A stretch of 32,000 nucleotides of DNA from Flavobacteriaceae bacterium (GTDB lineage: Bacteria > Bacteroidota > Bacteroidia > Flavobacteriales > Flavobacteriaceae): positions 3,750,001-3,782,000 of the forward strand of contig OZ245049.1 in the NCBI GenBank assembly GCA_965224465.1, read 5' to 3'. Below the pieces are notes generated by a model. It was given only the letters and a program-made list of their open reading frames with translations, had not been told where the DNA came from and made no database searches. Positions within the stretch are counted from its first letter, which is position 1. The number at the start of each line of letters is the position of its first letter. The position numbers and the translations under genes were made by a program. Shown here piece by piece: positions 2,423-30,228 of the stretch.

Positions 2423-5392
2423 ATGGCAGAGGTTGTAGAAGAAAAAAAAACAGGACAATATAATGGTATTCTGTATGAGTGTAGTTTTACGGCAGAGGGT
2501 AAAGGAGTTACCTGTGTAGAGCAGCCTGTACTTAAAGTGGTTAAACCAGGTGTGCGAATAAATTTGATGCGTATAGCCTTGATAAATAGAACACCTAAGT
2601 TTACGCCTTTAATGCTAGAGGGGGTTGGGAAAGATGAATTTATGCCATTGGAGACCCCAAAAGGTGCTCCAGACGTAGAAGGGTTAAGCAACTATGTATA
2701 TGCAAGTACAAGCTTAAGACCCGGGTTTTTATATGTAATCAACGAGAGTGATTCAGATGGTTGGAGTGAATGGGAAGTAGGATTAGGAGGGTGGCTTAAA
2801 GAGATAGATAAATCGCAAGCAGAAAGTGATTTTAGAAAAGTCACATCAGATGCTGTAGTAATTGATCAGTATGTTGCAGAACCTACAGATGTTTTGTGGT
2901 TTGCGTACTCAGAAATACAATGGAGTGCAGATTATTTTAAAAGCATGCGTGATGATAGTTCTAAACGGGGCACTCGTATGCAAAAATATGACTTAATTAA
3001 ACATGTTAATAATGAGTCTCAAAACGATGCAGCATCTTGGGATATAATGAAAAATAATTTTCTGATTATCCCCGAAAATAAATTGGATTATAATGTTACA
3101 CAACAAAATTATACAATAGCTTCTTTTGATGAAACCAATAATACCGAAAGTTATAAACTGGATGCTATCCTATGTCTACATGATCCAGTAGGGATATTTA
3201 TAGAACATTTTTGTTATCTAAAATACCTATGGAATAAGATGGATTATTTAATGATTTCATTAAAAATAGGGAAAGAAGTTAGCGATATAGAAAGAGCTTT
3301 GGCAAAAGGTCAAGATCCAAGATTATTACAAAACGCTGAAAAACTTGAGCAAATAGATGCGCTTTACAATATTGCTGTTAATATACGTGCTGTTGCTTTT
3401 TCAGATCAAGAAAGTATAGATAAAATAGGTGATAATATTGATGCAAAAAGGTTAAACAAAGTATTAGCTACTGAAGAACGATTGCTAATTAAAAATAAAA
3501 TTGTCAAAAGTAAAATGGTTTTTGCAAAATTTATTGAAAGTGATTATTTTAAAAGAATAAAGCAAGATTATTTTGAGAACACTCCTAATGTAATAATGGA
3601 AGGAAAATTTTTATTTGCTAGTTTAATGGTTGATTTGTGGAAACCTGCAAATTTTAAAGACAGTTTTTTAGAAACCGTTGACGAGAGTGCACAATGGAAT
3701 GCCAGTACAAAAGAAGGAAAAGAGTTTATTATAAAAGTATTAAATCGTAAAAATTTCTTAGGAAAATTATTTAATACCGTTACACTCTTAGAGGATGTTG
3801 AGGAAAATTCAAACAACCTAAAACTTATAAAGATTATCGATGCACTGTTTGATGTGGCAAAAGGGGTTGCTGAAGAGGGTGATGAAGTACTGAAACTGTG
3901 GGTTGCTATGATGAATAGTACTCGCTTAAAAATAAACGGGAAGGTGGTAGTAGCAACTTTTGAGCTTACTACAATGGCTAAAGAGTATAGGAAATCTTAT
4001 GTTGGGCGCTCCGACTTTGTGAAAAACACATTAAACATCAATAAAAAATCCTATAAAAAATTCAAAAAAGCAACAAATGAACTGAGTGAAGGGTTTATGG
4101 AACTTATGGAGTCCAAACAAATTAAGCTTACTGCTAGTTTTGAAAAAGCGATAAAAAGTGAAACTTTAAATGGCATGAAGAATTTTCAAGCTAGCTACTT
4201 CTGGAGGAAATTAATGCGTAGTCTTAGTTTTGTTAATCTTGCCTTGGCAACAGCTGCTCTTAGAAAGTCAGATAGTAAATTTCAAAAACTTTTAAATATA
4301 AGTAAATTTTTAACCGCTATTTCCGAGGTAAATGTACAGGTACGTAATGTAAAAGCAATGCGACTGGTTGGAGATGAATTAGAAGTTTTTAAAATAGCTA
4401 CAGAGAAGTTGTCAATTAGAGTGATGTATGCGGGAGCTGTGATTGATATAGCCGAAGCAGGGCTTAATTTTTGGGAACGCGATTACGATGCGGCTTCCGC
4501 GTATGCAGGAGCGGCGGTCACAGGATTATTGGCAGCTTTAATATTAGGGGGTACAATAAATATATGGAATCCAATAGGATGGGGATGTCTTATATTAGGA
4601 GCTTTGCTTGGTTTTTATGCAGCTTATTTGGAAGACTCCCCTTTAGAGCGTTTTGCTAAAAACGGAGTATTTGGTAGCATTCCTTCTAAGTATATATTTT
4701 GGAAAACTGTTGATTTTGATGAGAATAATGGTTATTTAAAGTATATAGAGGAGCATGTAAAAGAAACAACTAGAGTTGCTTTACATAAAACAGGCTTTGG
4801 TGATTGGGCAGACTATCCTACGCAATACAAGGATTTTATGAATATTTTAATAGGAGGTAGAATACATATTAAAATAAATAAAAATGATGAAGTAGAGATA
4901 GGCGAAACAATGAAAGCGGGTTCGTATGCCGATAAATCGAAAGTCATATTAAAAACATTTCTAATAAAAAAAATACAAGTGACTGCCTTTTTTGGTAGCT
5001 ATTTAACAGATAAAGAAGCATTAGAATATCATGTTTTTTACTTGCCTCAAGGTTTTGGAAAGGAAGCAGAAGAGGTAACTACTTTTTTATGCCAAAGTAA
5101 TATTACCATAAGTACTCTCAAAAGCCAAGTGCCAAAAGCACATTGGTCTATTGATTTAGAGTATCTTTATGATGTTAATAAATATTCTCAGATTATTATT
5201 ATGTGTCGTTTAAATATAAATAACAATCAATTTTTTCCAATTCCAAAAAAAACAATTCCACGTTATATTGCGGTAACAATACCTGTGATTCGAAATGATT
5301 CGCAGTCAGGATTTGTTTATAGAGATGGTCTCAATGATCGTGTTTATGTTGGGACACAACAAGAATTACTAAATAAAAAAATATGGAAATAG
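2423..5392 (+). CDS. Large T6SS effector, VasX-like N-region plus glycine-rich TM helices (putative membrane-disrupting toxin)
   Basis: 989 aa, starting 5 nt after the PAAR stop. N-region motifs are shared with 19189..22542: KPGVRINLMRIAL, LRPGFLYVINE, WSEWEV, LWFAYSEIQWS, LCLHDPVG. These resemble the VasX N-terminal / BTH_I2691-type effector pattern (PvRYal, lRxGwlYv, vqWs, lxDPxG). Hydrophobic Gly-rich helices lie at about 4430-4635 (AYAGAAVTGLLAALILGG...GWGCLILGALLGFYAAYL). Confidence 0.6.
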   Translation: MAEVVEEKKTGQYNGILYECSFTAEGKGVTCVEQPVLKVVKPGVRINLMRIALINRTPKFTPLMLEGVGKDEFMPLETPKGAPDVEGLSNYVYASTSLRPGFLYVINESDSDGWSEWEVGLGGWLKEIDKSQAESDFRKVTSDAVVIDQYVAEPTDVLWFAYSEIQWSADYFKSMRDDSSKRGTRMQKYDLIKHVNNESQNDAASWDIMKNNFLIIPENKLDYNVTQQNYTIASFDETNNTESYKLDAILCLHDPVGIFIEHFCYLKYLWNKMDYLMISLKIGKEVSDIERALAKGQDPRLLQNAEKLEQIDALYNIAVNIRAVAFSDQESIDKIGDNIDAKRLNKVLATEERLLIKNKIVKSKMVFAKFIESDYFKRIKQDYFENTPNVIMEGKFLFASLMVDLWKPANFKDSFLETVDESAQWNASTKEGKEFIIKVLNRKNFLGKLFNTVTLLEDVEENSNNLKLIKIIDALFDVAKGVAEEGDEVLKLWVAMMNSTRLKINGKVVVATFELTTMAKEYRKSYVGRSDFVKNTLNINKKSYKKFKKATNELSEGFMELMESKQIKLTASFEKAIKSETLNGMKNFQASYFWRKLMRSLSFVNLALATAALRKSDSKFQKLLNISKFLTAISEVNVQVRNVKAMRLVGDELEVFKIATEKLSIRVMYAGAVIDIAEAGLNFWERDYDAASAYAGAAVTGLLAALILGGTINIWNPIGWGCLILGALLGFYAAYLEDSPLERFAKNGVFGSIPSKYIFWKTVDFDENNGYLKYIEEHVKETTRVALHKTGFGDWADYPTQYKDFMNILIGGRIHIKINKNDEVEIGETMKAGSYADKSKVILKTFLIKKIQVTAFFGSYLTDKEALEYHVFYLPQGFGKEAEEVTTFLCQSNITISTLKSQVPKAHWSIDLEYLYDVNKYSQIIIMCRLNINNNQFFPIPKKTIPRYIAVTIPVIRNDSQSGFVYRDGLNDRVYVGTQQELLNKKIWK

Positions 5393-6252
5393 ATTTAGAA
5401 TACCAACATGCACAAAAATTTAAGAGTAAATACTTACGGCCTTTGCCTTTTGTAATTCGTACAGATTCACTTCAAATTGATATTAAAACCAAACAGAATA
5501 AAAAATTATACCCTATTTTTAATAACAATTGTATCAAACGATTTATTCCTTCAAATAAGAATATTTCAAAAATGGATATTTATATGCATATAGGTATTTG
5601 TTCCTTTTTTTGGATACTAATACCTATAATTGAACTTATAGATAATGGAGGTATTGATATGATCGTTTTTGCTTTTATAATTCCTTTAGGATTGCCTTTT
5701 CCTTTTATGGCTTATAGGTCTTTTAAACAATATAACATAGCTCCTGAACAAACTTTTGTTACTTTTGATCGGCTTAATAGCTTATTAACAATGCCTACAT
5801 CAGATGAACAAAGTTATTTTACCATACCTTTTTCACATTTAATCGCGGGAGAGGCTGTAACAGGAACCAAACATACTTATGGAGGTAAGTTTTTAGCTTT
5901 TATAAATGATACCAAACCTGTAATGTTCCGGCCATGGAGACCAGACGATTATATATCTTTAAATTATGCAGCTACTACCCCAAAAGAGATATGGTCATAT
6001 TACGTTTGGTATATGGATAAAAACCGTCCCTTACCTGAGTGTGAAGCTTTTGATGAGTTTAGAGAAAAAGATTTTGAGCGTCGTAAATTAGCAGGGTTTC
6101 CGCCACCGTTATTTAAGAGTAGGGTTCCAACCCCAGAGGCAAGCCTGGAACAACAATTACTACGTGAAACTTTTTGGAAAGACGAAGATTATATGGCTAC
6201 AAAAAACGAAGCTTTTCACAGTATATTTTTTAAAAGACCAAAAGAGAAATAG
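5383..6252 (+). CDS. Putative 2-TM membrane immunity protein (WYMDKNRPLP family)
   Basis: The ATG overlaps the effector stop (ATGGAAATAG). Two hydrophobic helices (GICSFFWILIPII, MIVFAFIIPLGLPFPFMAY). The C-terminal motif YVWYMDKNRPLPECEAFDEFREKDFERRKLAGFPPPLF is shared with 11926.., 13585.. and 22536... Confidence 0.6.
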   Translation: MEIDLEYQHAQKFKSKYLRPLPFVIRTDSLQIDIKTKQNKKLYPIFNNNCIKRFIPSNKNISKMDIYMHIGICSFFWILIPIIELIDNGGIDMIVFAFIIPLGLPFPFMAYRSFKQYNIAPEQTFVTFDRLNSLLTMPTSDEQSYFTIPFSHLIAGEAVTGTKHTYGGKFLAFINDTKPVMFRPWRPDDYISLNYAATTPKEIWSYYVWYMDKNRPLPECEAFDEFREKDFERRKLAGFPPPLFKSRVPTPEASLEQQLLRETFWKDEDYMATKNEAFHSIFFKRPKEK

Positions 6253-6308: not shown

Positions 6309-6403
6309 AAGCAATGCATTCGCGCGGATTTTAAATCCGCGCCAGTAACTGATTGTCTGCTAAGAATGTTTCGCGGAAAGGTTTACGGAAAAAGGTGATT
6401 TAT
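6309..6403 (+). repeat. Conserved 95-nt junction element, copy 1 (21-nt palindrome 6322-6342, stop-TTG start, first 17 codons)
   Basis: aagcaatgcattcGCGCGGATTTtAAATCCGCGCcagtaacTGAtTGtctgct...aaaaaggtgatttat recurs at 14382-14476 and 23339-23433. It always follows a membrane-immunity gene. Confidence 0.85.
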
Positions 6404-6910
6404 GCATCATTAGAAAATACAGATGATGTTTTTGAGTTTTTAAGTAATGAAAAAAAAGATGGAAAAGAAGAACAATATTTTACAAATATTAAAGCAGGAA
6501 CAAAATTAAAAACAAGCCTATCTTACAAAGTAGACATTAAAGCAAATACACCCATAAAAGTACTTAAAATTAAAGGAGATTATGCACAAATAAAAGTAAC
6601 ATCTATTACTGCAACCTTAGTTAGAGATACCGATATTAATGATAACGTAAAACCATTTAATAGCAATAAACTTTATACTATCAAAAATCTTACTACGGTT
6701 AATAAAGCATTTAATGGTCTTGCAACTAAAGATGCCACATTCAATACAAAACAAGTAAAAGCACCAAGAAATTGGAGAACAAATTTAAACAGAACTGTTA
6801 CCTTTTACCCAAATGGCTATGGTAAAGTGATTTGGATAGAAAAAACATCTATTTCCAAAATAGCAGAAAAAATAAAAAAAATTAGATATAATTACCTCAA
6901 TTATTCCTGA
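6353..6910 (+). CDS. N-terminal ORF piece of the frameshifted PG effector
   Basis: 185 aa, near-identical to residues 1-176 of 23383..26361. The TTG start directly follows an in-frame TGA. The tail IRYNYLNYS is out-of-frame read-through. Confidence 0.6.
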
Positions 6911-7415
6911 CTATTTTTTAACAGATAAACAAAAATACGAAACAGTTGAAAGAGAAGCCAAAACAGGAGAAAAAACTACATTATATGTAGATGTATGTAA
7001 GGCATATATCGAAGTCCCTTTTAGAACCGATGTAGAAGAAGTAACTGTAGAAAAAGAAAAAGTAGTTGACTTACGTAAATTTAAAAAAGCAAAAGACGAT
7101 AAAAAAGACCTTTGGTATAAAGTAGTATTAGATGATACAACTAGTAGCCAATGTGTAGCAGTAAAAGGCTGGGTAAAAGAAAAGGATCTTGACAAATTTA
7201 GCGCTTACGATTGGCAAAAATTTGGTTTTAAAGATCTAGACGCAGGTAATGAATACATATACTCTGTAAAAGACTTACGTGAGGCAACAGATAGTGCCGA
7301 TTTTGTAACCGAAATTTGGGATAAAACAATAGATACAGATGGCAATAAAGTATTAGATATACTAGAGCTTATTAGAGCGTTTAGTAAACCAGAAATAGCA
7401 CAAAAACTATCTCGT

Positions 7416-9302
7416 TTGGTATGTAAGCACAAAAATGAATGGTCTTATACTATGGACGAAATAAAACCAGAAGTAAAAGAACGCTGTGATTTTGGTATAC
7501 AATTAGAAGAAGTTACAGCCGAAAAACAAAAACTAGAAACCCAAAGGGATGATAGTTTAGCCAAAATGGAAGCCAAAATAGAAAATTTAATGTGGTGGGA
7601 TGAGGCAAGTAAAAAAACCTACACAGCACCCGTAAAAGAAGAAGATAAAACAAAAACGAGTAGCACCAAAAGACCTTCTATGTTGCCAGAAGGTACAGTG
7701 GTAGAAGAAATACCACAAAAAGTTGTTGTACCTTTAGACAATAAAACAACAGCAGCTAAACCAGATGCTAAACCAACGGAAGATAGTATACCAACGACAA
7801 GTACAACCGCTGCTCCAGCACCAGAAACTAAAGTAGAAGAAAAAGAAGTGCCGCCAAAACGTATGTTTCCTAAAAGCAATATAGTACATCACTTTCATCC
7901 AATTGCTTGGGTGGAGCAGATGAAACGAATGTATGGAGATTGTAAAGTTTTGAAAAAAGGAGATAAAAACGAATTAGTTAGAGAAATAAATATCCGTTTA
8001 GCAGGTTTTGGAGGAAATGTACCAACTGACGAGTTTACACAACGTACCGTAGATATGGTTAAACAATTTCAAAAAGACTATATGAAAGTGGAGCAAACGG
8101 GTGTGGTATGTGGTAAAATGTTTAAAGCTATTGATGAGTTTGATGAAAAATATATTATTCCTTTTAATAAAATTAAATGTAGATGTGGTGGATGTACTGG
8201 TTTTGGCAAAGGGAAATTTACTTCTCAAAAACAAAAGGGAAATATTAAAGAACTGTACAGGAAATATGAGTACCCAGGTATTCATAAAACATTGTTATGG
8301 ACATTAAAATCAACTATGTTTTATCTCGCAAACAATGATAAATCACATAAATTAAAATTCGGTAAAATTTCCTCTGGATACAGATGTCATATAGATAACA
8401 CACAACATAATAGAAGTTCAACTAATCATATGGGGAAAGCTTTAGATGTGCATTTTTATAAAAATAATGCTACTTCATCTTCTGAAAAAAACTGCGATAT
8501 TGTAAGAGATAAAATTCTAATAAATAGATCTGGAGCTCAATTAAGATGGGGAAACAGTAATAAAATCTCTTTAGAACCTAGTGAGAAAGACAGAATTGGT
8601 AGTGAATTTATTGCAACAACATGGGTTCATTATGATGTTAGAGAGTTTGATTTAGAATTTTTAGATGACAAGTTCTTTATAAAAAAACTAGATGATAGTC
8701 TCGAAAATAAAATTCAAAATTTAGCAAAAAAAGAAGGGTACGATACTGAATGTAATTGTAATTCTAATGGAGATAATAATTCAACCCAAGATGAAAGAAT
8801 TGATCCTGAAATTTTAAAAACAAGTGAAAAAGGAATCCAATTTATTAAAGATTGGGAAAGTTTCAAGAGTGAAGCATATAATGACTCTAAAGATTATTGT
8901 ACAATAGGTTATGGACACTTAATTGCCTATGAAAAATGCGAAAACATTACTTTATCTGAAGATTTTAAAAATGGAATTACTAAAGAAAAAGCAACCGAAT
9001 TGTTTAAAGAACGTCTTGTCGAATTTGAAAAATCTATTCAAAAAGACATAACGGTTAACCTTTATCAATATGAATTTGATGCTTTAGTAAGTTTAGTATT
9101 CAATACAGGTAAAGCTTTTTTAAGGACAAAAGGAGCTGGTGGTGGAGATACCAAAATTAAAAAGAATATTAATGCTAAAAAATATACAGAAGGAGCTGAC
9201 GAATTTGGAGATGTTACTAATGGAGGAACTTCCGGTTTAGTTAAAAGAAGAAATGCAGAAATTAATATGTTTAAAAATGATATTTATGATTCAATACATT
9301 AA
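7416..9302 (+). CDS. C-terminal ORF piece of the frameshifted PG effector; could be translated from ATG 7452 like the orphan modules
   Basis: Coiled-coil, PT-rich linker and [12 protein letters not shown], followed by three domains. PG_binding_1-like: [22 protein letters not shown]...VKQFQKDY. M15-like zinc peptidase: CRCGGC...SGYRCHIDN...[13 protein letters not shown]...WVHYDV. GH24 phage lysozyme: [26 protein letters not shown]...[12 protein letters not shown]...[13 protein letters not shown]. Confidence 0.8.
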
Positions 9303-10254
9303 ATTATTATCTATTTTTATTTGTTTAACGTTAATGTTTACAGTCTCTTGCAAAGAGAATAAAAAACAAATTGACAAAATAAATAAACAAGATGTTGTAA
9401 TAGCCAAGCAAGAAAACACCACATATAATTGGCGTTTTTTGAATGCCTTTTCTTTAGATAATTCAACCAATGAAATATTAAACCTAAAATTTAAAATAAT
9501 AAAAGATAGTATTTTTATAAAGAATATTGGAAAAGAAGCACTTTACAAAGGTGAAATTAATTCTAAAAAGTACTTTAATCGTATCTATGACTATGAATAT
9601 TTAAAAAGGTTTCTAAGTGATAAATTTAACATTAAAATTAAAAATACTTTAATTTATTTAAGAAATAAAAATGCGCACAAAAAAGAATCAATTCTCAAAA
9701 AATATTTTGATGATGCGTTTATAATTGATAATTTATTATTTATAGTTAATGATGAAGATTTTGTTGTTTTTGAAAAAATGAATGTTAAATCAATTAATAA
9801 AGACACAATTACAAGTAACTATAAAATAAACAATTTACCGATAAGCTACAACTATGCAAATAATTTTATGCAAATACAATTACCAATTGCATGGGTAAGT
9901 TTAAAACCAAATGTATCTTTTGAAGATACCTTTATAGCATTATTACCAAAAGTAAAAGAATATCAACCAGTAATATTAACAGGAATGTATTCTGCTGGAA
10001 ATAGTGAAGAGTTTTTAGTAATCTTAAATAGTGAAAACAAAGAAACATCTAGAATTAAACTATATTACAACGATGCACCAGATGGAAATGTAGAAAATTA
10101 TAGTTATTCAACATATCAAATAGAAAAAAACTATACAATTAAGATTACAGTATATAAAGTAAAAGAAGATTTAGTAAATAACAAAATAACAGAAAAAAAA
10201 TCTTCCGATATATATTATACTATTAATAATAAAGGAATGATTGTGAAAAAATAA
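9253..10254 (+). CDS. Lipoprotein, putative periplasmic immunity protein for the preceding PG hydrolase
   Basis: Signal peptide plus lipobox ([18 protein letters not shown]|KENKK). The real start is probably ATG 9277 or 9286, just before or overlapping the effector stop at 9300-9302. It sits immediately downstream of the toxin. Confidence 0.7.
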
Positions 10255-10857: not shown

Positions 10858-11434
10858 GTATCCGTCCGACGAAGCACGTATAGGAATTAAAAATACATAA
10901 AAAAACCTCGATTTATTGATCGAGGTTTAAATTTTGTGGAAATAGCTCACTTAATTTTTGAGCATTGTAATCAGGGATTATATCCAGTATTTTTTTCATC
11001 CATTTATAGGGGTTTACTTGGTGTTTTTTACAAGTCCCAAAAAAGGAATAGAACATCGCTGCATTTTTTGCAGCATCATGGCTACCTGCAAATAAATAAT
11101 TTTTACGTCCAATAGCTAATGTTCTGATAGATCCTTCTACTAGGTTATTATCTAGTTCTAAAGTACCGTCATACAGGTAGGCTTTTAAGTAGTCCCATCG
11201 TTTTAATGTATAAGTAATTGCTTTTCCTAGTGGACTTTTCGGTAAGCTTCCTTGGGTATTATGGATCAACCATTTTATAAATGTATCCATTATTGGTTGT
11301 GCTTTATCTAGGCGATAAGCATGCCGTTGCTCAGGAGTAAATTCCTGGTTTTTACAATGTCGTTCTATCCAAATTGGAGGTAATGATAGAGCTGGTGCTA
11401 CCTTTACTTCTGCCAATATTACAAGAGTAACCAT
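10858..11434 (-). mobile_element. Truncated IS66-family element end, copy 2, with transposase C-terminal ORF 10913..11434
   Basis: The 173-aa ORF carries the IS66 transposase C-terminal signature LELDNNLVEGSIRTLAIGRKNYLFAGSHDAAKNAAMFYSFFGTCKKHQVNPYKWM. The N-terminal two-thirds, including the DDE core, are missing. Its terminus abuts an internal point of copy 1. Confidence 0.8.
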
Positions 11435-11925: not shown

Positions 11926-12621
11926 ATGGCAAAAATTAAAAAGCGTTTTGGTAAATGGGGAGGTTATTTGCCACATTGTATTGATGGACGACCTACAATA
12001 GATATAAAAAAAGAAGAAATGGATGGAGAATATTATATTAAAGCTAATGATGAGTTTTTTATAATGAATAATGATTTATTTGGTAATATATATCTATATA
12101 TAGGGTTAGCCCTTTATTTCTTTATGTTATTAACAATAGCAATAAGACTTTCTGCAGATAAAGATGTTGGTTTTATTTTTTTATTTTTTTTATTTTCTTT
12201 TGGAACATTATCTATCATATATAATTATACAGCTCCAGTAAAAAAGATTATTTTAGATAGACTCAATGGGATCGTTACTTTTCCCAACTTTTTATGGGGC
12301 AAACCTATTTGCATGCCTTTTAAAGATATGTTGGTAGCATGGTCAGTAAAAAATTCAGGAATCAACCCTTCAGGACCTTCGCTTTCTGCTTTTCATCCCA
12401 ACGGTTTTTTTAGCACCGATATTATGGGGGCAGATGTGTTGGAAGATTGGTATTTTATAGTATGGTATATGGATAAAAACCGTCCTTTACCTCCGGGTAC
12501 TGCTTTTGATGAATATCGTGAGAAAGATTATCTGCGAAGAAAATCTGAAGGCTTTCCAGAAGGGTTATATCCTTGTAGTATTCATATTCCAGAATACAAG
12601 CCTTCAAAAAAAAGAAAGTAA
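11926..12621 (+). CDS. Putative 2-TM membrane immunity protein (WYMDKNRPLP family), orphaned
   Basis: Starts 4 nt after the effector remnant. Two TM helices. Shared motifs: RLNGIVTFPNFLWGKPICMPF and IVWYMDKNRPLPPGTAFDEYREKDYLRRKSEGFPEGLYPC. Confidence 0.6.
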   Translation: MAKIKKRFGKWGGYLPHCIDGRPTIDIKKEEMDGEYYIKANDEFFIMNNDLFGNIYLYIGLALYFFMLLTIAIRLSADKDVGFIFLFFLFSFGTLSIIYNYTAPVKKIILDRLNGIVTFPNFLWGKPICMPFKDMLVAWSVKNSGINPSGPSLSAFHPNGFFSTDIMGADVLEDWYFIVWYMDKNRPLPPGTAFDEYREKDYLRRKSEGFPEGLYPCSIHIPEYKPSKKRK

Positions 12622-12685
12622 AAAACAAAGAATTGTAACTCTTATTAATTAGAAAATAATATGATAACTATTAAGAATTGTTAGT

Positions 12686-13591
12686 GTCTTTAATAAACGG
12701 GATGTTGACGCCAGTGTTGCTTGGAAGTTGGCAGGCGTTGCTTTTACAGTAAGTACTGCGGCAGGTATTTGGGGAGGAACTATTTTTTTATTATCAGGGC
12801 CTGTAGGTTGGATTGCCTTAGGAATTGGTTTAATAGGAGTGGTTTCAGCAAATATTTTTATAGACACAGACTTGGAATTCTATTTTAAACACTTTTTATT
12901 ATCCGATCATAAAAAATTACCTATTGGTAATAACAGTCCTATGGCATACAACCGTCTTGTCTATAAAAGTATTGAGACTTTAGTAGAGAGTGAGGATGAA
13001 GACATTAAAAATAGCCTAATGTATCCTGAGGATGCTATTGCTAGTTTACACGATCTTACGGTATGTACCAGCATTAATTACTATGTAGAAAACATGAAAA
13101 TGAAATTTGCAGGCAGACGTGGTAGAAGTACGGGTTATTATGTAAGTAGTTTTGGTATTACTATGAATTTTAATCATTTTTTATACGATGTAAATCAATT
13201 AGAAGTAAAAGGTATGATAGTGCGTCATACCTGGGTTAATAGTATTGGAAGTAATGCCGAAGAATTTAATTTAATATTAAAAGATGCCAAAATAGTAAGC
13301 CTGAAAAACGGACAACAACAACTTTTAGTAATTGTAGCAATACCTTACGAAAAAAGAAAATTAATAAAAGACGATAAAGATTTAGAAATGGTACTAGCCA
13401 TACGTGTAAGAATTAATAAAGAGAAAAACCATTACTTTCCTTATAGACTACTAGACAAACCTGAACGCTATATTGGTGCTAAATTTAAGTTATATAAAAA
13501 CATATACACTAATTCAGGGGAAAATAATACAGATAATCAAAATTTAGTTTTTGATACCTTAGCGAACTTAAAACTTGATAAAACATGGTAG
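12686..13591 (+). pseudogene. Orphan 3' fragment (last ~300 codons) of the island-B membrane effector
   Basis: 12688-13591 aligns to 21639-22542 at constant offset 8951 with few substitutions. The frame opens only at 12668, and no ATG occurs before codon ~70 (the track start 12728 is TTG). It begins inside the TM region (FNKRDVDAS..AGVAFTVSTAAGIWGG). Confidence 0.7.
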
Positions 13592-14367
13592 ATGCGACTT
13601 TTAATTACAAACGCCCTATAACCCATACCCAATACAAACATGGAGATAAAGAAACCAAAAAAGGAGGATTTAGCAGAATGCTGACCATGCGCATAACAGA
13701 TGATATGCATGTTATGAAAAAAAGTGATGTAGGTACTAAAGGGGGCTTTCCTTTTGCTACAGATGTTTTTTTAAAATGCCCTGTTGTTCCTAAGATAATG
13801 CCATTATGGTTGGGTAGCCTATTTTTATTTTTATTTTTATCGGGTATTTTAATTATGTTGAGACCTAGTCAGCTTAAAATTGAATTGCCAGTAATTATTA
13901 TGACGATAGTGTTTTTTCTAGGATTTTTGTTTTTTGCAACCTATTATTTTACGATGCCAACAAAAGAGCTTATTTTTAATAGAGCGGACGGTTTGGTTAC
14001 TTTTCCTGGGTTTATGTGGTGTAAAAACATAACAATGCCTATACATAAAATGATGTTTTCTATGTCATCGCCTAGTACGCAAGGAGGAGGCGCTTATATG
14101 TTGCAAATTGTACGACCAGACAGGACGTATTCTTTGTATTTATGTACAAGGGGCTATAGTTGTTATGAAGATTTATCATCTTATTTATGGTATATGGATA
14201 AGAACAGACCATTACCTACGGGGGAAGGTTTTGATCCGTGTCGTTTACAAGATTATGAACGTAGAAAATCTGAGGGTTTCCCTAAGCCATTATTTCCTTG
14301 TAGTTTTGAAACTCCAGAAGCTACGCTTGAACAACAGGCAGAACGTGAGCGTATTGGCGGTTGGTAA
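13585..14367 (+). CDS. Putative 2-TM membrane immunity protein, near-duplicate of 22536..23324
   Basis: The ATG overlaps the upstream stop (ATGGTAG). It is almost identical to the island-B copy except for a replaced patch at 13840-13917. It carries the YLWYMDKNRPLPTGEGFDPCRLQDYERRKSEGFPKPLFPC motif. Confidence 0.7.
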   Translation: MVDATFNYKRPITHTQYKHGDKETKKGGFSRMLTMRITDDMHVMKKSDVGTKGGFPFATDVFLKCPVVPKIMPLWLGSLFLFLFLSGILIMLRPSQLKIELPVIIMTIVFFLGFLFFATYYFTMPTKELIFNRADGLVTFPGFMWCKNITMPIHKMMFSMSSPSTQGGGAYMLQIVRPDRTYSLYLCTRGYSCYEDLSSYLWYMDKNRPLPTGEGFDPCRLQDYERRKSEGFPKPLFPCSFETPEATLEQQAERERIGGW

Positions 14368-15107: not shown

Positions 15108-15494
15108 ATGTCTTTTAAAGCAAAATTAAAAGTAGGTGGACAAGAGTACAATGTATTGTCTTGTTCTTATGAATTACATCAAGAAACTGATGCAACTGGA
15201 AGACCATCTTCTATCACTAGAGGTGGGAAAATTAGATTAACGGTTGAGTCTACAGCAGACACAAGTTTGTCTGATTGGATGTTTAATAACTTTGAGCGTA
15301 GAGACGGTTCTATTGTTTTCTTAAAAAGAGATACCGAAGCTACTGCAAAGGAATTAAAGTTTTCTGAAGGTTATATGGTGAAATATCTAGAGAATTTTGA
15401 TTCTACAGGTAAAAATCCAATGTCAGAGTCATTTATCATTTCAGCAAAATCTGTTGCAATGGGGAATGGTGAACATGTAAATGATTGGGTGTAA
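15108..15494 (+). CDS. hcp: Hcp/TssD tube protein (Bacteroidota type)
   Basis: 128 aa with the typical short Bacteroidota TssD layout: MSFKAKLKVGGQEYNVLSCSYELHQETDATGRPSS..RGGKIRLTVEST.DTSL.DWM. It lies upstream of vgrG. Confidence 0.8.
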   Translation: MSFKAKLKVGGQEYNVLSCSYELHQETDATGRPSSITRGGKIRLTVESTADTSLSDWMFNNFERRDGSIVFLKRDTEATAKELKFSEGYMVKYLENFDSTGKNPMSESFIISAKSVAMGNGEHVNDWV

Positions 15495-16151: not shown

Positions 16152-16547
16152 ATGTCGTTTTTATCACAATTAACAATAGCCGATGATACCATGAATGTAT
16201 TGCGATGTTCTTTTAACTTTGAACAAGGTGCAGATGCTGCTGGTAAACCATCACAAAGACCAAGTGGAGGGAAACTCATAATTTTAATTGAATCTACCAG
16301 TAAAACAGATTTTTTGGAATGGATGATCTCTCCCAATATGACCAAAAATGGAGAAGTTGTTTTTTATAAAAGAGATAATATGTCTAGTTTAAAAACCATT
16401 ACTTTTAAAAATGCCTATTGTTTGAGCTATCAAGAAGATTTTGATGCAGAAGGAAACCAACCTTTAAAAACACGGATTGTTGTGTCTGCAAAAGAAATTA
16501 CAGTAAAGAATACTACCTTTTCCAATAACTGGTTTGATAGAGAATAA
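16152..16547 (+). CDS. hcp: Hcp/TssD paralogue
   Basis: 131 aa, collinear with 15108..15494 at roughly one-third identity. Shared pattern: MSF....L......NVL.CS......DA.G.PS....GGK....ES...T....WM. It ends 85 nt before the vgrG start. Confidence 0.75.
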   Translation: MSFLSQLTIADDTMNVLRCSFNFEQGADAAGKPSQRPSGGKLIILIESTSKTDFLEWMISPNMTKNGEVVFYKRDNMSSLKTITFKNAYCLSYQEDFDAEGNQPLKTRIVVSAKEITVKNTTFSNNWFDRE

Positions 16548-16632: not shown

Positions 16633-18447
16633 ATGGCGCTACAAAGCAACACAACTATAATTATTAAGAGACAAGAATTTTCAAGTTTTCAAAGCCTTAA
16701 CTTACATCAGGAAATTGATGCATCCCATTTGTTAACACTTACGTTTAGAATGGACACACTTGAAGATCTAGAAGAAGAACTTGCAACCAACAGTAAAGAG
16801 TTTTTAGGGGAAACAATTTCCTTGCAAACGATTCCTGCAAATGGTTTTGAAGACCGTTATGGCGAATTGACGTTTAAAGGTATTATTACCGAAATAAAAA
16901 TCATAAAAGGGCATGAGGTAAGTGATGGTGATAAAGTAGTTATAGAGGCAAAAAGCCCCGATTTTTTAACAAATGATGGTCCGCATTTTGCGTCTTACAA
17001 CGATGTTTCCCTCTCAGAAATTATTGATAGTTCGTTTGAAGGCTATGATACTTCAAAATTAGAAGTAGACATACGCCCTCAAAACAACCCTAGTTTGCAT
17101 TATTCGGTACAGCATAACGAAAGTGCTTTTACGTATGTAAGTAGACTTGCAGCACAATACGGAGAGTGGTTCTATTACGATGGCGCGAAATTAGTATTTG
17201 GAATGCCTGGTACCGAAGACTTAGAACTCACCTATGGATTTGATTTAGTAGAGTATCAGATAGGTTTGATACCTCAATCCAACAATTACAAAATATTTGC
17301 AAATGATTATTTAACCGATGAGGTACAAGAAAAATCAACAAGCGAAACCAATGCCGGTTTAAGAGGTTTTGGAGGCTTTGTTTCTGAAAAATCAAATGCC
17401 ATTTACAGAAAAGAAACAAAAATTTGGCACAATCTTTACAGCGATACAGAAGTACAACAGCGTTTAGATACAGCAGTGGAATTACAGAAAAAAGCGATTG
17501 ATGTAAAACAAGTAAAAGTACAGGGTGTTTGTGATAATCCAGGAGTAAAAATTGGGAGCGTAGTTGTAATAGATGGGAATAGATACAGAATTATAGAGGT
17601 TACACATAGCAATAATGAAATTGGCGATTATACAAATAAATTTGAAGGAATCACCGCAGATATAAACGCATATCCATACACCAATATAAACGCATTTCCA
17701 AAAAGCGAAACACAGGTAGCCACCGTAAAAGAAAATGCAGATCCCGATGGATTGGGGCGCATAAGAGTGCAATTTCCATGGCAAGTGGAGTATAGCGAGT
17801 TAACCCCATGGGTGCGCATTGTAACGCCACATGGCGGAGCCAATAAAGGATTCCATTTTATACCAGAAATTGACGAAGAGGTATTGGTGGGCTTTGAAGG
17901 GGGGAATGCAGAACATCCTTATATATTGGGGAGTTTGTACACGGGAAATGCCAAACCCGAAGCGTTTAAAACCGACACCAACGATGTTAAAATTATAAGA
18001 ACCCGCAGCGGACACACCATTGAACTAAATGATAAAGATGGTGAAGAAAAAATAAATATCTACGATAACGAAGGAAGTATCATCACTTTTGATACCCAAG
18101 CAAAATCCTTGTATATACAAGCTACGGAGAATATTGAATTCCAAGCAAAGAATATTAAATTAAAAGCGAGCGAGAATATAGAACTAAACGCCGATCAAGA
18201 AATTAAAATAGCAGCAACGGGTAACGCATTATTAGCATCAGAGGCAGTTATTAACATACAAGCAGAAAGTGATGTTAACGTAAGTGCGAGTTCAAATATA
18301 ACCATAGAAGCCACTAGTAAAGCAAATTTTAAAGGACAAAGTATTATTGTAGAAGGGCAAACATCAGCTGAATTTAATAGTGCCCAAACCAAAATTACGG
18401 GTAGTGGAATGATTGATGTTTCAGGAGGAATGATAAAAATAAATTAA
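16633..18447 (+). CDS. vgrG: VgrG (TssI) T6SS spike protein, complete
   Basis: 604 aa with the same OB-fold signature and C-terminal beta-helix repeats as 2..1708. Confidence 0.92.
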   Translation: MALQSNTTIIIKRQEFSSFQSLNLHQEIDASHLLTLTFRMDTLEDLEEELATNSKEFLGETISLQTIPANGFEDRYGELTFKGIITEIKIIKGHEVSDGDKVVIEAKSPDFLTNDGPHFASYNDVSLSEIIDSSFEGYDTSKLEVDIRPQNNPSLHYSVQHNESAFTYVSRLAAQYGEWFYYDGAKLVFGMPGTEDLELTYGFDLVEYQIGLIPQSNNYKIFANDYLTDEVQEKSTSETNAGLRGFGGFVSEKSNAIYRKETKIWHNLYSDTEVQQRLDTAVELQKKAIDVKQVKVQGVCDNPGVKIGSVVVIDGNRYRIIEVTHSNNEIGDYTNKFEGITADINAYPYTNINAFPKSETQVATVKENADPDGLGRIRVQFPWQVEYSELTPWVRIVTPHGGANKGFHFIPEIDEEVLVGFEGGNAEHPYILGSLYTGNAKPEAFKTDTNDVKIIRTRSGHTIELNDKDGEEKINIYDNEGSIITFDTQAKSLYIQATENIEFQAKNIKLKASENIELNADQEIKIAATGNALLASEAVINIQAESDVNVSASSNITIEATSKANFKGQSIIVEGQTSAEFNSAQTKITGSGMIDVSGGMIKIN

Positions 18448-18463
18448 AACAAATAAATAAATT

Positions 18464-19177
18464 ATGCCAGGACCAGCAGCAACAATATCACACATGCACA
18501 CATGCCCTATGTATAGTGGAACAAGCCCACATACTGGCGGCCCCATTATAGGCCCGGGAGTGCCAACAGTTTTAATAGGAGGAAAACCTGCCGCAGTAAT
18601 GGGGGATCAATGTACCTGTTCGGGACCACCCGATGTAATTGTAGAAGGTGTTTCTACCGTATTAATTGGTGGGAGACCCGCAGCTACTATGGGATCAAAA
18701 ACAGGTCATGGAGGCGAAGTAAGCATTGGAAATACTACCGTACTTATTGGTACAAGATGTAGTGCTCCTACCGCAATAATGCCAGTAAGCAAAATACCTT
18801 TTCCTAAAATATCTTTTAAAGATCGTATACTAACTTCTTTGTCGGGGAATTCATTGGCAGAAGCAGAAGCGAATCAAGCTGCTTTGAGAGAAGAAGAGGA
18901 AGGTGAGCCTGAAATATATGGTGTACAGTGGATTATAGGAGAACAAACAGTAAGAGAATCTCATGTGTTTTCTGAAGTAACTGTAAGGGCTAGGGTAAGA
19001 AATATTAATGATGGTGAAAAAATTACTTTTTCTATTAAAAAACCTCTTAGCACAACGGATAATAATGGAGTTAGTACTACTTCCGAAGAAGATATTATTG
19101 AGTTATCAGGTACAGTACAAGACAAAATAGTAGAGGTAACTTGGGAAATTGAAAAATCACAGGAAGAATCTAAATAA
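18464..19177 (+). CDS. PAAR-domain spike-tip protein with variable C-terminal extension
   Basis: PAAR motifs as in 1725..2417. Identity with that copy ends at 18910. The C-terminal ~88 aa are divergent. Confidence 0.9.
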   Translation: MPGPAATISHMHTCPMYSGTSPHTGGPIIGPGVPTVLIGGKPAAVMGDQCTCSGPPDVIVEGVSTVLIGGRPAATMGSKTGHGGEVSIGNTTVLIGTRCSAPTAIMPVSKIPFPKISFKDRILTSLSGNSLAEAEANQAALREEEEGEPEIYGVQWIIGEQTVRESHVFSEVTVRARVRNINDGEKITFSIKKPLSTTDNNGVSTTSEEDIIELSGTVQDKIVEVTWEIEKSQEESK

Positions 19178-19188
19178 AATAGCAGATA

Positions 19189-22100
19189 ATGGTTACGGAA
19201 GAAGTAATAAAATACCAAGAGGAAGGAGCAAAATTAGTTGATAGTAAATACACCGTAGTTGTATCAGGTTCAGGCGTGGTGAATGAAGAAAGACCAGTAT
19301 TTAAAGCATTATTACCAGGTATTAGATTGCATTTTCTTAGATATGGTTTGTTTGATAGAAACAAGGATAACGTAAGTTCGATTCGTATTAAAGATGATAC
19401 GGACGAAAAATACACAGCATCAGATACTGATGTGTCCAATGGCGACCTACAAACCACCAAAGACTTTAGAGTAATGGCTACGCTACTTAAGAAAGGATAT
19501 GTATATATTATTAATGCGGAAAATAAAAATGACTATCATGAATTAAAAGTTGGTGAATTTGGAATGCTTTACCCTATAATTTGGAATACTAAAAATTTAG
19601 AAAGTGATGGTAGAACCCCTAAAGACTTTAGAGAGATTAATGGTGAAAAATCACATTACAAACTCATTTCTAAAACAAAAAAAGAAGGTGGTAAAAAATA
19701 TTGGATAGGCTACAGCCCTGTGCAATGGTCGTACGAATTACATAAAAAAATGCTCGCTGCATCTGATGAAGATAAAAAGCAGAAGCACATGATTTTAGTA
19801 GAATGTAAAGGTATAAAAAAAGGAGAGGAAGAAGCCAATGAATATATTTTACCTTACAATAAAATAAATATAGCCTTTTATGAAGGCGAAGACACAGATA
19901 GTTTAGTAAGAAAAACGTTAAATCAAATATTTGCCACTGAAAAAAAAGAAGAAAAACGTGGTAATAATGAGCTTCTTGAAGATATGTTTATTACTCTGCA
20001 TGATCCTGTAGGCTGCCTTCATGATGTTGGAGGTGTTTTAAGTGAAAAAACTGTAGAGTTTAGAGCTTTGGTAGAAGCTATTCAATCTGGAGAAACAGAG
20101 ATTGAAGCCAGAAGAAGATATGCCAAAACTCCTCCTGAATTTGCTCCTAACCCTAGTGATAATTACAAAAACATGTTCTCACTGGCTCTGGCTAGCTATA
20201 AAATGGTGTATAGTAGTAAAGAAAATACTCAAAAATTTGATGGTGCTGAGGTAGGGTATAATTTAACAAAACGTAATCAAACTAATTTTCCATATCAACC
20301 AAATTCTAGCGCTTCGTATGAGTTTACTATTAATTCTTTCTCAAAAAGTGATTATGGAGTGATAATTAAAAAAAAAACTAATAATTACGTAGCTAATGAG
20401 CATATTGGTAGTGGGTTGCACCGTTTAAAAGTAGAGGGAATATTAGGTGTGCACCCACGAAGAAAAAAGAGAGCCCAGTTAATTAAATATCGTGACATAG
20501 TAGGTGAATTTATACAATCAGACTATTTAAAGAAGGGATTGGCCTTTTATTCTGAAAATTGTTCTGCTTACAAAATTTTTGGTATTGAAGAATTGTATAA
20601 ATATATTTTACTTTTATATACAAATCCGTATGGTATTGACCGTCATTTACTTTTAAACAAAAAAAATGATCTTGAAAAAGACGTTTATTATAGCAGTGAC
20701 CAGTGGATTGATTGGATAAATAAACAAAAAAAATTAAAAACTCCAAACAATCCCAATGACCCTTTAGACGTCTTATTGGTTCACGAAATTTCTATTGGTC
20801 AAAAATTATTAAATAAAAAGGTAGAATTATCTAATAAATTAGCCGCTGTTTTTTCTGCGAAATTAACACTGCACTCATTAAGCGAGGATTTTTTTAAATC
20901 AAAAAAAATTACAAAGGCTATCACAGGAAAAACAAACTACCAAAAAATTATTAATGAAGGCTATACTGAAATGATAGACCAGCTAAATAAAATTACGGTA
21001 ATTACAAAAAAAGGAGGTATACCTGAAAAAGTGTTTAGTTTTGGCAATACTCACGCAATAGAAATAAATGCAAAAGTATTAGGTGTAGATTTTGATCCTA
21101 ATGTAGATGTTATTATAAGAGGTCCTGATGGGAAAAATATAAAAGAATTTACTACGGATTTAATAAAACACAATAAATTAAATGGAAATAAAGCCACTGT
21201 TGCTGGTGGTGCACATGTGTTAGAAGTTGGTGACAATGTAGAAAACATAAGCAAATATGAATATGTAAGAAATAAAATTAATAAAAACGGAGCCAAACGC
21301 TTTAATCAAAAAGCATATAATGCTTTAAATTCTCGTGGATTTACAGTTTTTTTAGCGGGTTTAGAAGTGATTAATTTTTACTATGCAACTTTGGGGCTGT
21401 ATGAATCAATACGAAAGGAGGAGTCAATACTAGTTAGAGCTAAAGAAGTTATTAACACGGCCGGAATTGGAGCCGAACTAGTAGAAGCTTCCTTCCGAGT
21501 ACAAAAAGCACATTATATTGCAATAGGTGAGGAGCTTGCAGAAAGTACAGCCAAAGGTCTATCAAATAAAATTGCAATAGCAGGTGCTATTGGTGGTATT
21601 ATTACTGCTGGTATGTGTATTACAGAAGCTGTTATAGCCTTTAATAAACGTGATGTTGATGCCAGTATTGCTTGGGGATTGGCAGGTGTTGCTTTTACAG
21701 TAAGTACTGCGGCAGGTATTTGGGGAGGAACTGTTTTTTTATTATCAGGGCCTGTAGGTTGGATTGCCTTAGGGATTGGTTTAATAGGAGTGGTTTTAGC
21801 AAATGTTTTTATAGACACAGACTTGGAATTCTATTTTAAACACTTTTTATTATCCGATCATAAAAAATTACCTATTGGTAATAACAGTCCTATGGCATAC
21901 AACCGTCTTGTCTATAAAAGTATTGAGACTTTAGTAGAGAGTGAGGATGACGACATTAAAAATAGCCTAATGTATCCTGAGGATGCTATTGCTAGTTTAC
22001 ACGATCTTACGGTATGTACCAGCATTAATTACTATGTAGAAAACATGAAAATGAAATTTGCAGGCAGACGTGGTAGAAGTACGGGGTATTATGTAAGTAG

Positions 22101-23338: not shown

Positions 23339-23433
23339 AAGCAATGCATTCGCGCGGATTTAAAATCCGCGCCAGTAACTGAGTGTCTGCTAGGAATGTT
23401 TCGCGGAAAGGTTTACGGAAAAAGGTGATTTAT
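23339..23433 (+). repeat. Conserved 95-nt junction element, copy 3 (palindrome 23352-23372)
   Basis: Same element as 6309-6403 and 14382-14476. Confidence 0.85.
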
Positions 23434-27376: not shown

Positions 27377-27519
27377 CATTAGAGGGGATTTAATATCTAA
27401 TTATGGAAGTCGGAAAGATGTGGCAGTAAATATTAGGATACACTAGAGCTTATTAGAGCGTTTAGTAAACCGGAAATAGTACAAAAACTATCTCGTTTGG
27501 TATGTAAGCACAAAAATGA

Positions 27520-30116: not shown

Positions 30117-30228
30117 TCCCCGATCCCGCCAGTTCAATGTTTTTAAGTTAAGAATTTAATCATTTAAAAATTAGTATTTTAAATTTACTTTAATCAAGTA
30201 TACATAAATAGCACAAAAACTATCTCGT

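Follow-up and report, generated by a model that had tools for sequence, protein, structure and literature searches.

Among the peptidoglycan hydrolases delivered through a type VI secretion system (T6SS), most have a single catalytic domain and bifunctional enzymes are unusual, as stated in PMC11796386. The same paper describes Tse4 of Acinetobacter baumannii as a lytic transglycosylase with an endopeptidase, and Tae17 as a lytic transglycosylase with an amidase, with both activities of Tae17 shown to contribute to killing. A further group is formed by the WHIX effectors, whose subclass II comprises 'double-blade' effectors like Awe1 of Aeromonas jandaei (Fridman et al., PLoS Biol 2025, PMC12135965). 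In the tables of that paper, peptidase or amidase domains (Tae3-like, NlpC/P60, M23, M15) and glycosidases (GH19, lambda-lysozyme-like and others) are found in one protein. According to the same paper, the toxin domains of double-blade effectors lie on either side of WHIX and two separate immunity proteins are needed; bifunctional effectors of the Tse4/Tae17 kind appear to need one immunity protein (PMC12135965, citing Le and colleagues). This paper describes four toxin cassettes, designated A to D, in a 32,000-nucleotide stretch of the Flavobacteriaceae bacterium assembly GCA_965224465.1 (contig OZ245049.1, positions 3,750,001 to 3,782,000), referred to as the window, in which each cassette combines a predicted glycan-cleaving with a predicted peptide-cleaving domain.

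Paired hydrolase domains in the four cassettes

Each of the four C-termini carries a domain of the lysozyme superfamily together with a peptidase domain, and none of the eight has lost its catalytic motifs. A first-pass annotation of the stretch had proposed that every cassette pairs a glycan-cleaving with a peptide-cleaving fold, and this was confirmed by domain searches and by the retention of eight out of eight catalytic motif sets. The two outcomes named in advance as speaking against the pairing, a domain class lacking support in several cassettes or missing catalytic residues, were both checked and neither was found. The domains are as follows.

7968-8108, + strand: PG_binding_1-like domain of toxin A (Pfam 3.8e-4, 21 bits against a cut-off of 23)
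8109-8750, + strand: M15-like (LAS-type) zinc peptidase domain of A, with the motifs CxCxxC 8178-8195, SGYRC 8373-8387, NHMGKALD 8424-8447 and WVHYD 8622-8636
8847-9260, + strand: GH24 phage-type lysozyme domain of A, amino acids 478-615 (PF00959, 6.5e-27), with the catalytic Glu in DWESF 8850-8864, Asp in YNDSKD 8877-8894 and Thr in CTIGYG 8898-8915
25111-25698, + strand: GH19-like lysozyme/chitinase-fold domain of B (PDB endolysin 9ms7, 3.9e-7; phrog_181, 9.9e-14), with YHESARF 25201-25221 and TGLEF 25225-25239, the HES and GLE glutamates being present
25795-26271, + strand: TIGR02594/CHAP-like papain-fold peptidase domain of B (TIGR02594, 4e-10; CHAP, 1.4e-4; phrog_21357, 2.4e-9), with the catalytic Cys in PWCAAF 25906-25923 and His in SHVGFV 26110-26127
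28048-28494, + strand: lambda-lysozyme-like (GH104-like) domain of C, with the Glu in RIGEGS 28084-28101
28720-29109, + strand: M23 peptidase domain of C, with QHRGID 28759-28776 and CHLHYE 29038-29055
30778-31287, + strand: lytic-transglycosylase domain of D (PDB 9udh, 1.3e-19), with the Glu in ALETGG 30874-30891
31423-31980, + strand: C39-like papain-fold domain of D (PDB 9jdd/9jg8, 3.1e-27), with the catalytic Cys in DGCWRT 31510-31527 and His in TDHYVV 31780-31797

For toxin A, for which a peptidoglycan-binding domain, an M15 peptidase and a GH24 lysozyme had been annotated, the GH24 assignment is strong: PF00959 was matched with 94.8 bits against a cut-off of 22.3, the Glu/Asp/Thr triad is present, and PDB endolysins were matched as well (8app, 4e-14). 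The other two parts of the annotation held less fully, with the peptidoglycan-binding domain below its cut-off in A (it is above it, with 29.1 bits, in the paralogue P0128) and the M15 domain having intact motifs and a profile score below threshold. In the M15-like domain, R92, H107, D113, H174 and D176 are invariant across 21 homologues, as is WVHYD, and S89, G90 and Y91 of the SGYR motif are conserved to at least 90%; the ligand pattern of M15 zinc peptidases, H-x(3-6)-D with a distal His and the SGYR motif, is present. Peptidase_M15_3 (PF08291) is matched by 10 of the 21 homologues, at best with 8.2e-5, and VanY by 2. The AlphaFold2 model of the domain is confident, with a predicted local distance difference test score (pLDDT) of 84.6, and its best, non-significant Foldseek matches were MepA (E about 2) and phage 'Peptidase M15A' proteins (E 0.18-1). 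The identification of the first enzyme of A as M15-like is thus supported but not proven, and it is the weakest assignment of the eight.

The complete module of peptidoglycan-binding, M15-like and GH24 domains was also identified in Oxalobacteraceae (Rugamonas, Pseudoduganella), there fused to LysM domains. This occurrence indicates that the whole two-enzyme block was probably transferred between phyla. The M15-like domain contains an invariant CxCxxC cluster (about 8178-8195), and Cys-rich segments are also seen in the inter-domain linkers of A to D, as in D directly upstream of the C39-like domain at 31423-31980, and in the first residues after the junction (CNCNSNG, FNCCKDD, NCTCNTNCSCCKC and ECYCNRD). 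These clusters may be disulfide or metal sites relevant in the periplasm.

For toxin B, the annotated GH19-like and NlpC/P60-type TIGR02594 domains were recovered in so far as the motifs of both folds are present, with the TIGR02594 score below the curated cut-off. The GH19-like assignment is of moderate strength: Pfam GH19 was not matched by the domain of B, GH19-type endolysins other than 9ms7 were matched weakly, and the paralogue P0130 matches PF00182 at 1.4e-4, below the cut-off. The TIGR02594/CHAP-like assignment is likewise moderate; the CHAP score was 22.7 bits against a cut-off of 26, and phage lysin families were matched at 2.4e-9 and 1.3e-7.

The pair proposed for cassette C, a lambda-type lysozyme and an M23 peptidase, was upheld with intact motifs. 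Lambda lysozyme (1am7/3d3d) is matched by the C-terminal half of the first domain at 5e-5, and by the paralogue P0127 at 9e-16 over the full length (residues 9-148); RIGEGS aligns with AWSEGT, which holds the catalytic Glu19. The lambda-lysozyme-like assignment is regarded as moderate and the M23 assignment as strong, with PF01551 at 2.7e-19 (69.6 bits against a cut-off of 28.7), HxxxD and HxH present, and PDB M23 entries (lysostaphin, LytM) matched at about 1e-10, at best 7e-11. In cassette D, neither domain was matched in Pfam. The lytic transglycosylase and C39-like assignments are nevertheless strong and agree with the domain types annotated, a transglycosylase and a papain fold, since the closest solved relatives, PDB 9udh ('lytic transglycosidase') and 9jg8/9jg9/9jdd ('Peptidase C39-like domain-containing protein'), have catalytic Glu, Cys and His residues that align with those of D: ALETGG with AFETGE of 9udh, and the Cys and the TTDH motif with 9jdd. 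As a difference, the transglycosylase domain of D could not be aligned to the first 412 residues of the 617-amino-acid chain 9jg8_C. The M15-like and TIGR02594-like scores fall below curated cut-offs, and these two domains are graded weaker than GH24, M23, the transglycosylase and the C39-like domain.

The linker preceding the toxins was found in 13 proteins, all in one genome of 5.24 Mb. Genome and window together yielded 13 distinct toxins in seven domain combinations, all of them glycosidase plus peptidase (numbers beginning with P denote proteins outside the four cassettes).

M15-like + GH24: A, P0041, P0013
M15-like + lambda-like: P0128
GH19-like + TIGR02594-like: B, P0124
GH19-like + CHAP: P0130
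lambda-like + M23: C
lambda-like + C39-like: P0123, P0127
transglycosylase + C39-like: D, P0121, P0122

Outside the source genome, a metagenome-assembled genome of the Flavobacteriaceae encodes a toxin with a transglycosylase and a TIGR02594-like domain, and the M15-like domain is joined to GH24, GH108, lambda-like and GH19-like domains and to one unclassified partner. In all, about ten classified combinations were obtained, and the number of same-class pairs among them is zero. The chance of this result with random partners from pools of similar size is about 0.5^10, a crude figure as the combinations are not independent. The order of the domains is variable, with the M15-like domain first within its pairs and the other peptidases last. 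The annotation had further suggested that four independent combinations converged on one logic; this view was not maintained, as the combinations instead arose when modules were shuffled within three superfamilies (lysozyme-like, LAS metallopeptidase and papain-like).

Exceptions to the combination of glycosidase and peptidase exist in relatives from Olleya, Aquimarina and metagenomes, whose cassettes have a single domain: a TIGR02594-like domain (Aquimarina, Olleya), CHAP, YkuD, an M15-like domain or an N-acetylmuramidase (PF11860, 4.5e-39). Cassette C together with its immunity gene is present in Olleya sediminilitoris (toxin 81%, immunity protein 79% identity) and on one metagenome contig, where the immunity protein is 72% identical to that of C.

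Modular lipoproteins of predicted immunity function

Three genes for putative immunity lipoproteins were identified, one each after A, B and C (ImmA, ImmB and ImmC), with hydrophobic leaders that, as read from the sequence, end in TVSC-K, IFSC-K and LFSC-K. The annotated rule of one large lipoprotein per cassette stands for these three, and the gene expected after D would lie beyond the window end. The start of ImmA overlaps the end of toxin A.

ImmA, for which few relatives were found, is composed of an N-module (about amino acids 34-173) and a C-module (about 183-333, numbered from the ATG at 9253), which also occur apart from each other. P0137 and P0140 (319 and 341 amino acids) share only residues 12-173 of ImmA with 68-78% identity, P0136 (300 amino acids) shares only residues 183-333 with 79% identity, and P0138, P0139 and P0141 (196-228 amino acids) represent the C-terminal module alone. 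Downstream of P0070 and P0062, toxins with an M15 domain only, lie lipoproteins of 175 and 189 amino acids that are homologous to the C-module (E 2e-21 and 3e-17). At locus L011, a toxin with a GH24 domain near-identical to that of A and a divergent M15 subtype is followed by P0137, in which the N-module of ImmA is joined to a different C-module. The immunity protein of the GH24 + M15 toxin L006 matches the N-module at 2.6e-11, and its C-half matches the immunity protein of L007, a toxin of M15 and the unclassified partner, at 9e-29. The immunity protein of the M15 + GH108 toxin L005 matches the C-module family at 8.7e-10. From this genomic association with M15-carrying toxins it is concluded that the C-module is in all probability an anti-M15-like unit, and the N-module is provisionally assigned to GH24 by co-variation and elimination.

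For ImmB, four full-length relatives were found. Its N-module (amino acids 64-192) also occurs alone in proteins of 140-268 amino acids, and in the 262-amino-acid immunity protein of the transglycosylase + TIGR02594 toxin. These patterns support the description of ImmA and ImmB as predicted two-module fusions, and the earlier expectation that a single lipoprotein has to face two activities is consistent with them, the modules of ImmA co-varying with individual toxin domains. The size of the downstream lipoproteins follows the number of toxin domains, with 158-189 amino acids for six single-domain toxins and 262-350 amino acids for ten two-domain toxins. Relatives of the small immunity lipoprotein modules were found neither in Pfam nor in the PDB.

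At L011, the two-module immunity gene is followed by a further gene (2652-3206) for a lipoprotein of 184 amino acids, whose sequence is similar to the C-half of the immunity protein of L007 (1.6e-6) and which looks like a spare anti-M15 module. At L008, the gene following the small immunity protein (4429-5370) encodes a protein of 313 amino acids with GHGH and HKDHGH motifs. The G+C content of the immunity genes in the window (9286-10254, 26366-27376 and 29190-30116) is 21.8%, 20.8% and 26.9%, much lower than that of the carrier and linker regions (32-36%) and of the toxins (29-34%).

Carrier, junction motif and T6SS islands

All long open reading frames of the window lie on the + strand, and they form two near-duplicate T6SS auxiliary islands.

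11-1708, + strand: VgrG, island A
1725-2417, + strand: PAAR, island A
2423-5392, + strand: VasX_N-type toxin of 989 amino acids, island A
5383-6252, + strand: membrane protein of the VasX_N-type toxin, 289 amino acids, island A
6353-9302, + strand: effector A, paralogous to B over its full length and broken by a frameshift
9253/9286-10254, + strand: ImmA lipoprotein
10913-11434, minus strand: IS66 transposase fragment between the islands (Pfam IS66, 1e-28)
11926-14367: VasX-type module remnants between the islands
15108-15494 and 16152-16547, + strand: Hcp genes, island B (Pfam TssD, 2e-52 and 3e-47)
16633-18447, + strand: VgrG, island B (Phage_base_V, 1e-23)
18464-19177, + strand: PAAR, island B (Pfam PAAR, 2.4e-20)
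19189-22542, + strand: VasX_N-type toxin of 1117 amino acids, island B (VasX_N, 1.2e-12)
22536-23324, + strand: membrane protein of the VasX_N-type toxin, 262 amino acids, island B
23383-26361, + strand: effector B, 992 amino acids, with an SH3-like N-terminal part, a low-complexity linker and the toxin
26345/26366-27376, + strand: ImmB lipoprotein
27520-29160, + strand: orphan cassette C, 5'-truncated
29190-30116, + strand: ImmC lipoprotein, 308 amino acids
30229-31986, + strand: orphan cassette D, 5'-truncated
7890-7910 (A), 24922-24942 (B), 27970-27990 (C) and 30703-30723 (D), + strand: junction motif HFHPIAW

Effectors A (6309-7923) and B (23339-24955) are 97.8% identical over 1617 nucleotides, and C (27421-28015) and D (30197-30737) are 96-97% identical to the common linker of B at the nucleotide level. 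Nucleotide homology among the four genes ends at the toxin starts, where the annotation had placed the boundaries of the toxin regions, and each junction lies just 3' of the motif HFHPIAW. HFHPIA[WF] is common to all family members, no variation of the motif is seen in relatives from other genera, and the divergence of the toxins sets in about 10 residues downstream of it. As in a polymorphic toxin locus, there is a conserved 5' region that ends at a sharp junction, and toxin-immunity pairs that are truncated at the 5' end and have kept homology lie downstream.

The cassettes of A and B lie at the ends of long carrier genes. The gene of A is broken by a frameshift, and C and D are both orphans truncated at the 5' end; effector B is the sole uninterrupted long copy in the window. 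Effector A is found as open reading frame pieces at 6353-6910 and 7416-9302, and by three-frame translation the downstream frame is open from about 6882. The frameshift lies at about 6881, in a tract of eight A residues (6874-6881, after T6873) where B has seven (23904-23910). A deletion of two nucleotides in A, suggested by a BLAST gap, was dropped, because the bases show A8 where the in-frame allele needs A7. The A8 tract could be a homopolymer error in the long-read assembly, phase variation or transcriptional slippage. The gene calls of paralogues break at the same A-rich site, where P0129 stops and P0122 begins in a shifted frame. C and D retain only the last 540-600 nucleotides of the linker (about 595 in C), and their apparent start codons are Met/Leu codons of the homologous B sequence. 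Their toxins are 99.5% (C) and 99.3% (D) identical to those of P0133 (905 amino acids) and P0132 (944 amino acids) from the same genome, both of which begin with the short N-terminus of A and B. This N-terminus, MSA(K/R)NV..., has been conserved in no fewer than four copies, which measure about 900-990 amino acids.

For the comparison with WHIX effectors, the sequence of the Vibrio alginolyticus effector Va01435 was rebuilt from a published AlphaFold file. Four longer relatives of the window effectors, three at other loci and one in the same genome, have an N-terminal region with the motif WHGG[IVL]H, followed by an SH3_3 domain.

L001, 2579-6244: long-form relative
L003, 4090-7095: long-form relative
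L004, 13-2982: long-form relative
P0129, same genome: long-form relative

The N-termini of these four proteins are 33-37% identical to residues 31-130 of Va01435, the first WHIX region (BLAST E 1e-13 to 2e-15), so that WHIX-like effectors seem to exist in Flavobacteriaceae. An alternative view of this N-terminus as a degenerate M23/LytM domain was ruled out, since the comparison with Va01435 shows the first WHIX region. The long-form relatives sit directly after VgrG and PAAR. Relative to L001, effectors A and B start at the equivalent of about residue 345. In the alignment with the second WHIX region, which does not reach significance, FIVKHPTDW pairs with LVCKHKNEW, and WHYWPF and HFHPIA are collinear by eye. 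The GH19-like toxin of B is 32% identical to the C-terminal domain of Va01435 (2.6e-18), and both begin with C(F/Y)CNRD. As in the WHIX class, Hcp, VgrG and PAAR are encoded upstream and the C-terminal toxins are all predicted peptidoglycan hydrolases, and on these sequence features the effector family is best described as WHIX-like.

The two VasX_N proteins match Pfam VasX_N at about 1e-12 and 4e-17. Because the Hcp genes match the Pfam model PF17642 (TssD) and all identified relatives are Flavobacteriaceae, the T6SS is predicted to be of the Bacteroidota type. The IS66-family fragment adjoins an orphan C-terminus of a VasX-like toxin (12728-13591), near-identical to the end of the toxin at 19189-22542, and two additional copies of the associated membrane protein are found at 11926-12621 and 13585-14367; therefore, the VasX-type module too leaves orphan toxin and immunity remnants. 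The PAAR proteins (1725-2417 and 18464-19177) have 230-237 amino acids and C-terminal extensions that are unlike between the islands, and those of relatives without the VasX-like insertion have 158-162 amino acids. The extension may be a spike adaptation to the VasX-like cargo.

Interpretation and relation to described systems

It is considered probable that the window represents Bacteroidota T6SS islands with exchangeable two-hydrolase toxins and two-module immunity lipoproteins, which recombine as matched units. In such islands, the gene order of Hcp, VgrG, PAAR and a VasX-like toxin with its immunity gene would be followed by polymorphic, peptidoglycan-attacking cargo effectors. Each effector would consist of a conserved N-terminal carrier, of the WHIX class to judge from the long relatives, a linker ending at HFHPIAW and, behind this motif, an exchangeable toxin of two hydrolases with complementary targets. 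The lysozyme-superfamily enzyme would cut the glycan strand and the metallo- or cysteine-peptidase the stem peptide or cross-link, so that after secretion into the periplasm of a rival the sacculus would be broken in both dimensions by synergistic activities. The producer would be protected by one periplasmic lipoprotein per cassette with two inhibitor modules, one for each enzyme. Toxin domains and immunity modules would recombine as matched units, which is supported for immunity because the modules of ImmA co-vary with individual toxin domains. The orphans C and D, with about 550 nucleotides of retained linker homology, may be swapped into a full-length gene and may also supply extra immunity.

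A number of findings weigh against this explanation. The M15-like region of A has no direct sequence match in Pfam or the PDB, the profile of 21 sequences found nothing in the PDB, and Foldseek searches of the model against PDB and BFVD gave nothing significant; for B, TIGR02594 was matched with 40.1 bits and its curated threshold of 70.55 was missed. WHGGxH-coding sequence was found nowhere in the window, and the delivery of the window copies A and B is uncertain, because both are devoid of the first WHxxxH region. For the second WHIX region (Va01435 residues 271-476), an hhalign E-value of 0.14 with a probability of 0.44 is suggestive, and the real hidden Markov model score was reached by 25 of 2000 shuffles, which is not significant. 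Of the window cassettes, A contains a frameshift, and a carrier is missing from C and D. On the immunity side, the ImmB N-module was considered as an anti-TIGR02594 unit and rejected, since its hidden Markov model misses the small immunity proteins of TIGR02594-only toxins, and the module was matched to no other toxin domain; for ImmC, the metagenome scan gave only one full-length relative and no protein sharing one half. The size rule has one exception, a single-domain YkuD cassette with a downstream protein of 317 amino acids. The structure prediction that had been proposed as a check for two-domain immunity proteins was carried out for ImmA, from an alignment of eight sequences; the pLDDT was 53.8, only the beta-rich C-module was folded confidently, a second domain was not confirmed, and Foldseek gave no fold match for the model.

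Part of these findings would be explained if the window cassettes were mostly non-deliverable remnants, in which the immunity lipoproteins are selected for protection against the toxins of neighbours and the toxin sequences serve only as recombination stock, the first WHIX half of A and B having been lost to an inserted VasX-like module. The A8 frameshift, the lack of the WHGGxH region in the window with the start of B at the equivalent of residue 345 of L001, the absence of a credible start of their own for C and D, and the presence of the same toxins on the full B-type (short-form) carrier elsewhere in the genome all fit such an archive. The catalytic motifs, however, are all intact and the toxin reading frames are open over 1.2-1.4 kb each; the conservation of the short N-terminus in at least four copies suggests a working variant, and the frameshift of A is a single-base homopolymer change, possibly a long-read error or phase variation. 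An archive of this kind is considered unlikely on balance. Whether the pairing was selected in the T6SS at all can be doubted from another side, as phage families already join such domains: phrog_28672, with 397 positions, matches the lambda-like domain at 16-156 and M23 at 276-378, phrog_21656 matches M23 at 636-735 and the transglycosylase at 841-931, and there are further matches to baseplate-hub and tail-lysozyme families. Two-domain blocks could accordingly have been captured whole from virion-associated lysins or endolysins. This is judged distinctly unlikely, since the lambda-like domain is paired with M23, C39-like or M15-like domains, the transglycosylase with C39-like or TIGR02594-like domains, and the M15-like domain with at least four glycosidase families, in orders that differ between combinations; despite this shuffling the roughly ten classified combinations contain no same-class pair, and shuffling of the toxin domains is accompanied by that of the immunity modules.

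Degenerate lytic domains serve as binding modules in cell-wall enzymes, for example in LytM-type activators, and the M15-like and TIGR02594-like domains are divergent, so that one domain of each pair might be an inactive cell-wall-binding or targeting module and only the other a toxin. This appears very improbable, as each of the eight domains keeps its metal ligands or nucleophile, residues that do not vary among homologues, and a dedicated immunity module follows the M15-like domain even where this is the sole toxin domain, which would be pointless if it were harmless. With the two-hydrolase explanation preferred, it may be asked whether the cassettes act as a combinatorial two-key weapon, in which one glycan and one peptide cutter are kept per cassette by selection and both are freely exchanged, and a rival must match both halves with immunity drawn from a library of domain-specific inhibitor modules fused into one lipoprotein. 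This extended proposal is tentative and is given a little less than an even chance. That about ten shuffled combinations all keep the strict pairing points indirectly to an advantage, in killing between bacteria, of cutting glycan and peptide alike.

If the two-key proposal is true, these would be the first WHIX-class effectors described in Bacteroidota and the first tandem double-toxin form of the class. The preferred explanation would extend the idea of one effector with two cell-wall activities to another phylum and T6SS subtype. A fused modular inhibitor would be an alternative solution to the immunity problem, compared to two separate proteins. Since recombination moves toxin domains and immunity modules in step, and versions with a single domain exist, comparative genomics alone can assign inhibitor modules to enzyme families, as for the ImmA C-module and the M15-like peptidase. 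On the two-key proposal, the result would be a natural lookup table in which hydrolases of the GH24, M15, GH19, lambda-lysozyme, M23 and papain-fold types each have a new inhibitor fold as counterpart. The small lipoprotein modules are candidate new inhibitors of lysozymes and peptidoglycan peptidases, because they have no relatives in Pfam or the PDB.

Lysozyme and M23 domains are combined in phi29 gp13, and mycobacteriophage LysA is a modular endolysin. Phage virion-associated hydrolases and modular endolysins share with the cassettes the domain families and the glycosidase plus endopeptidase architecture, and the PHROG families matched span both types. In contrast to the cassettes, phage lysins are not known to have immunity genes, to lie in an Hcp/VgrG/PAAR context or to share a conserved carrier or junction motif. 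Rhs and CdiA polymorphic toxins have a conserved N-terminus, variable C-terminal toxins, a sharp motif-marked junction and downstream 5'-truncated orphan pairs. The window cassettes resemble them in the motif-marked junction and in orphan toxin-immunity pairs that retain homology, and differ in that the junction motif is HFHPIAW, not VENN or PxxxxDPxGL, and that the toxins are exclusively predicted peptidoglycan hydrolases, in this genome always as two-domain pairs.

Among published systems, the WHIX double-blade effectors of Proteobacteria come closest, and Tse4 and Tae17 come next. The latter two are likewise single cargo effectors with a glycan-cleaving and a peptide- or amide-cleaving domain; likened by description, they are single fixed proteobacterial effectors, whereas a shuffled cassette library is found here, and a modular immunity protein is not described for them in the accessible part of PMC11796386. 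WHIX effectors are, like those of the window, polymorphic T6SS cargo with toxins mainly targeting peptidoglycan. In contrast to the double-blade effectors, both toxin domains are placed here in tandem at the C-terminus, 30-100 residues apart, immunity is provided by one fused two-module lipoprotein and not by two proteins, and the host is a flavobacterium with a Bacteroidota-type T6SS, a phylum that is not mentioned in the accessible text of PMC12135965 and the accessible part of its supplements. The design of peptidase plus glycosidase is already published for WHIX effectors, Tse4 and Tae17; what is distinct here is that both toxin domains stand in tandem at the C-terminus, that one genome holds a shuffled library of strictly hetero-class pairs, that the immunity lipoprotein is fused and modular, and that the host belongs to the Bacteroidota.

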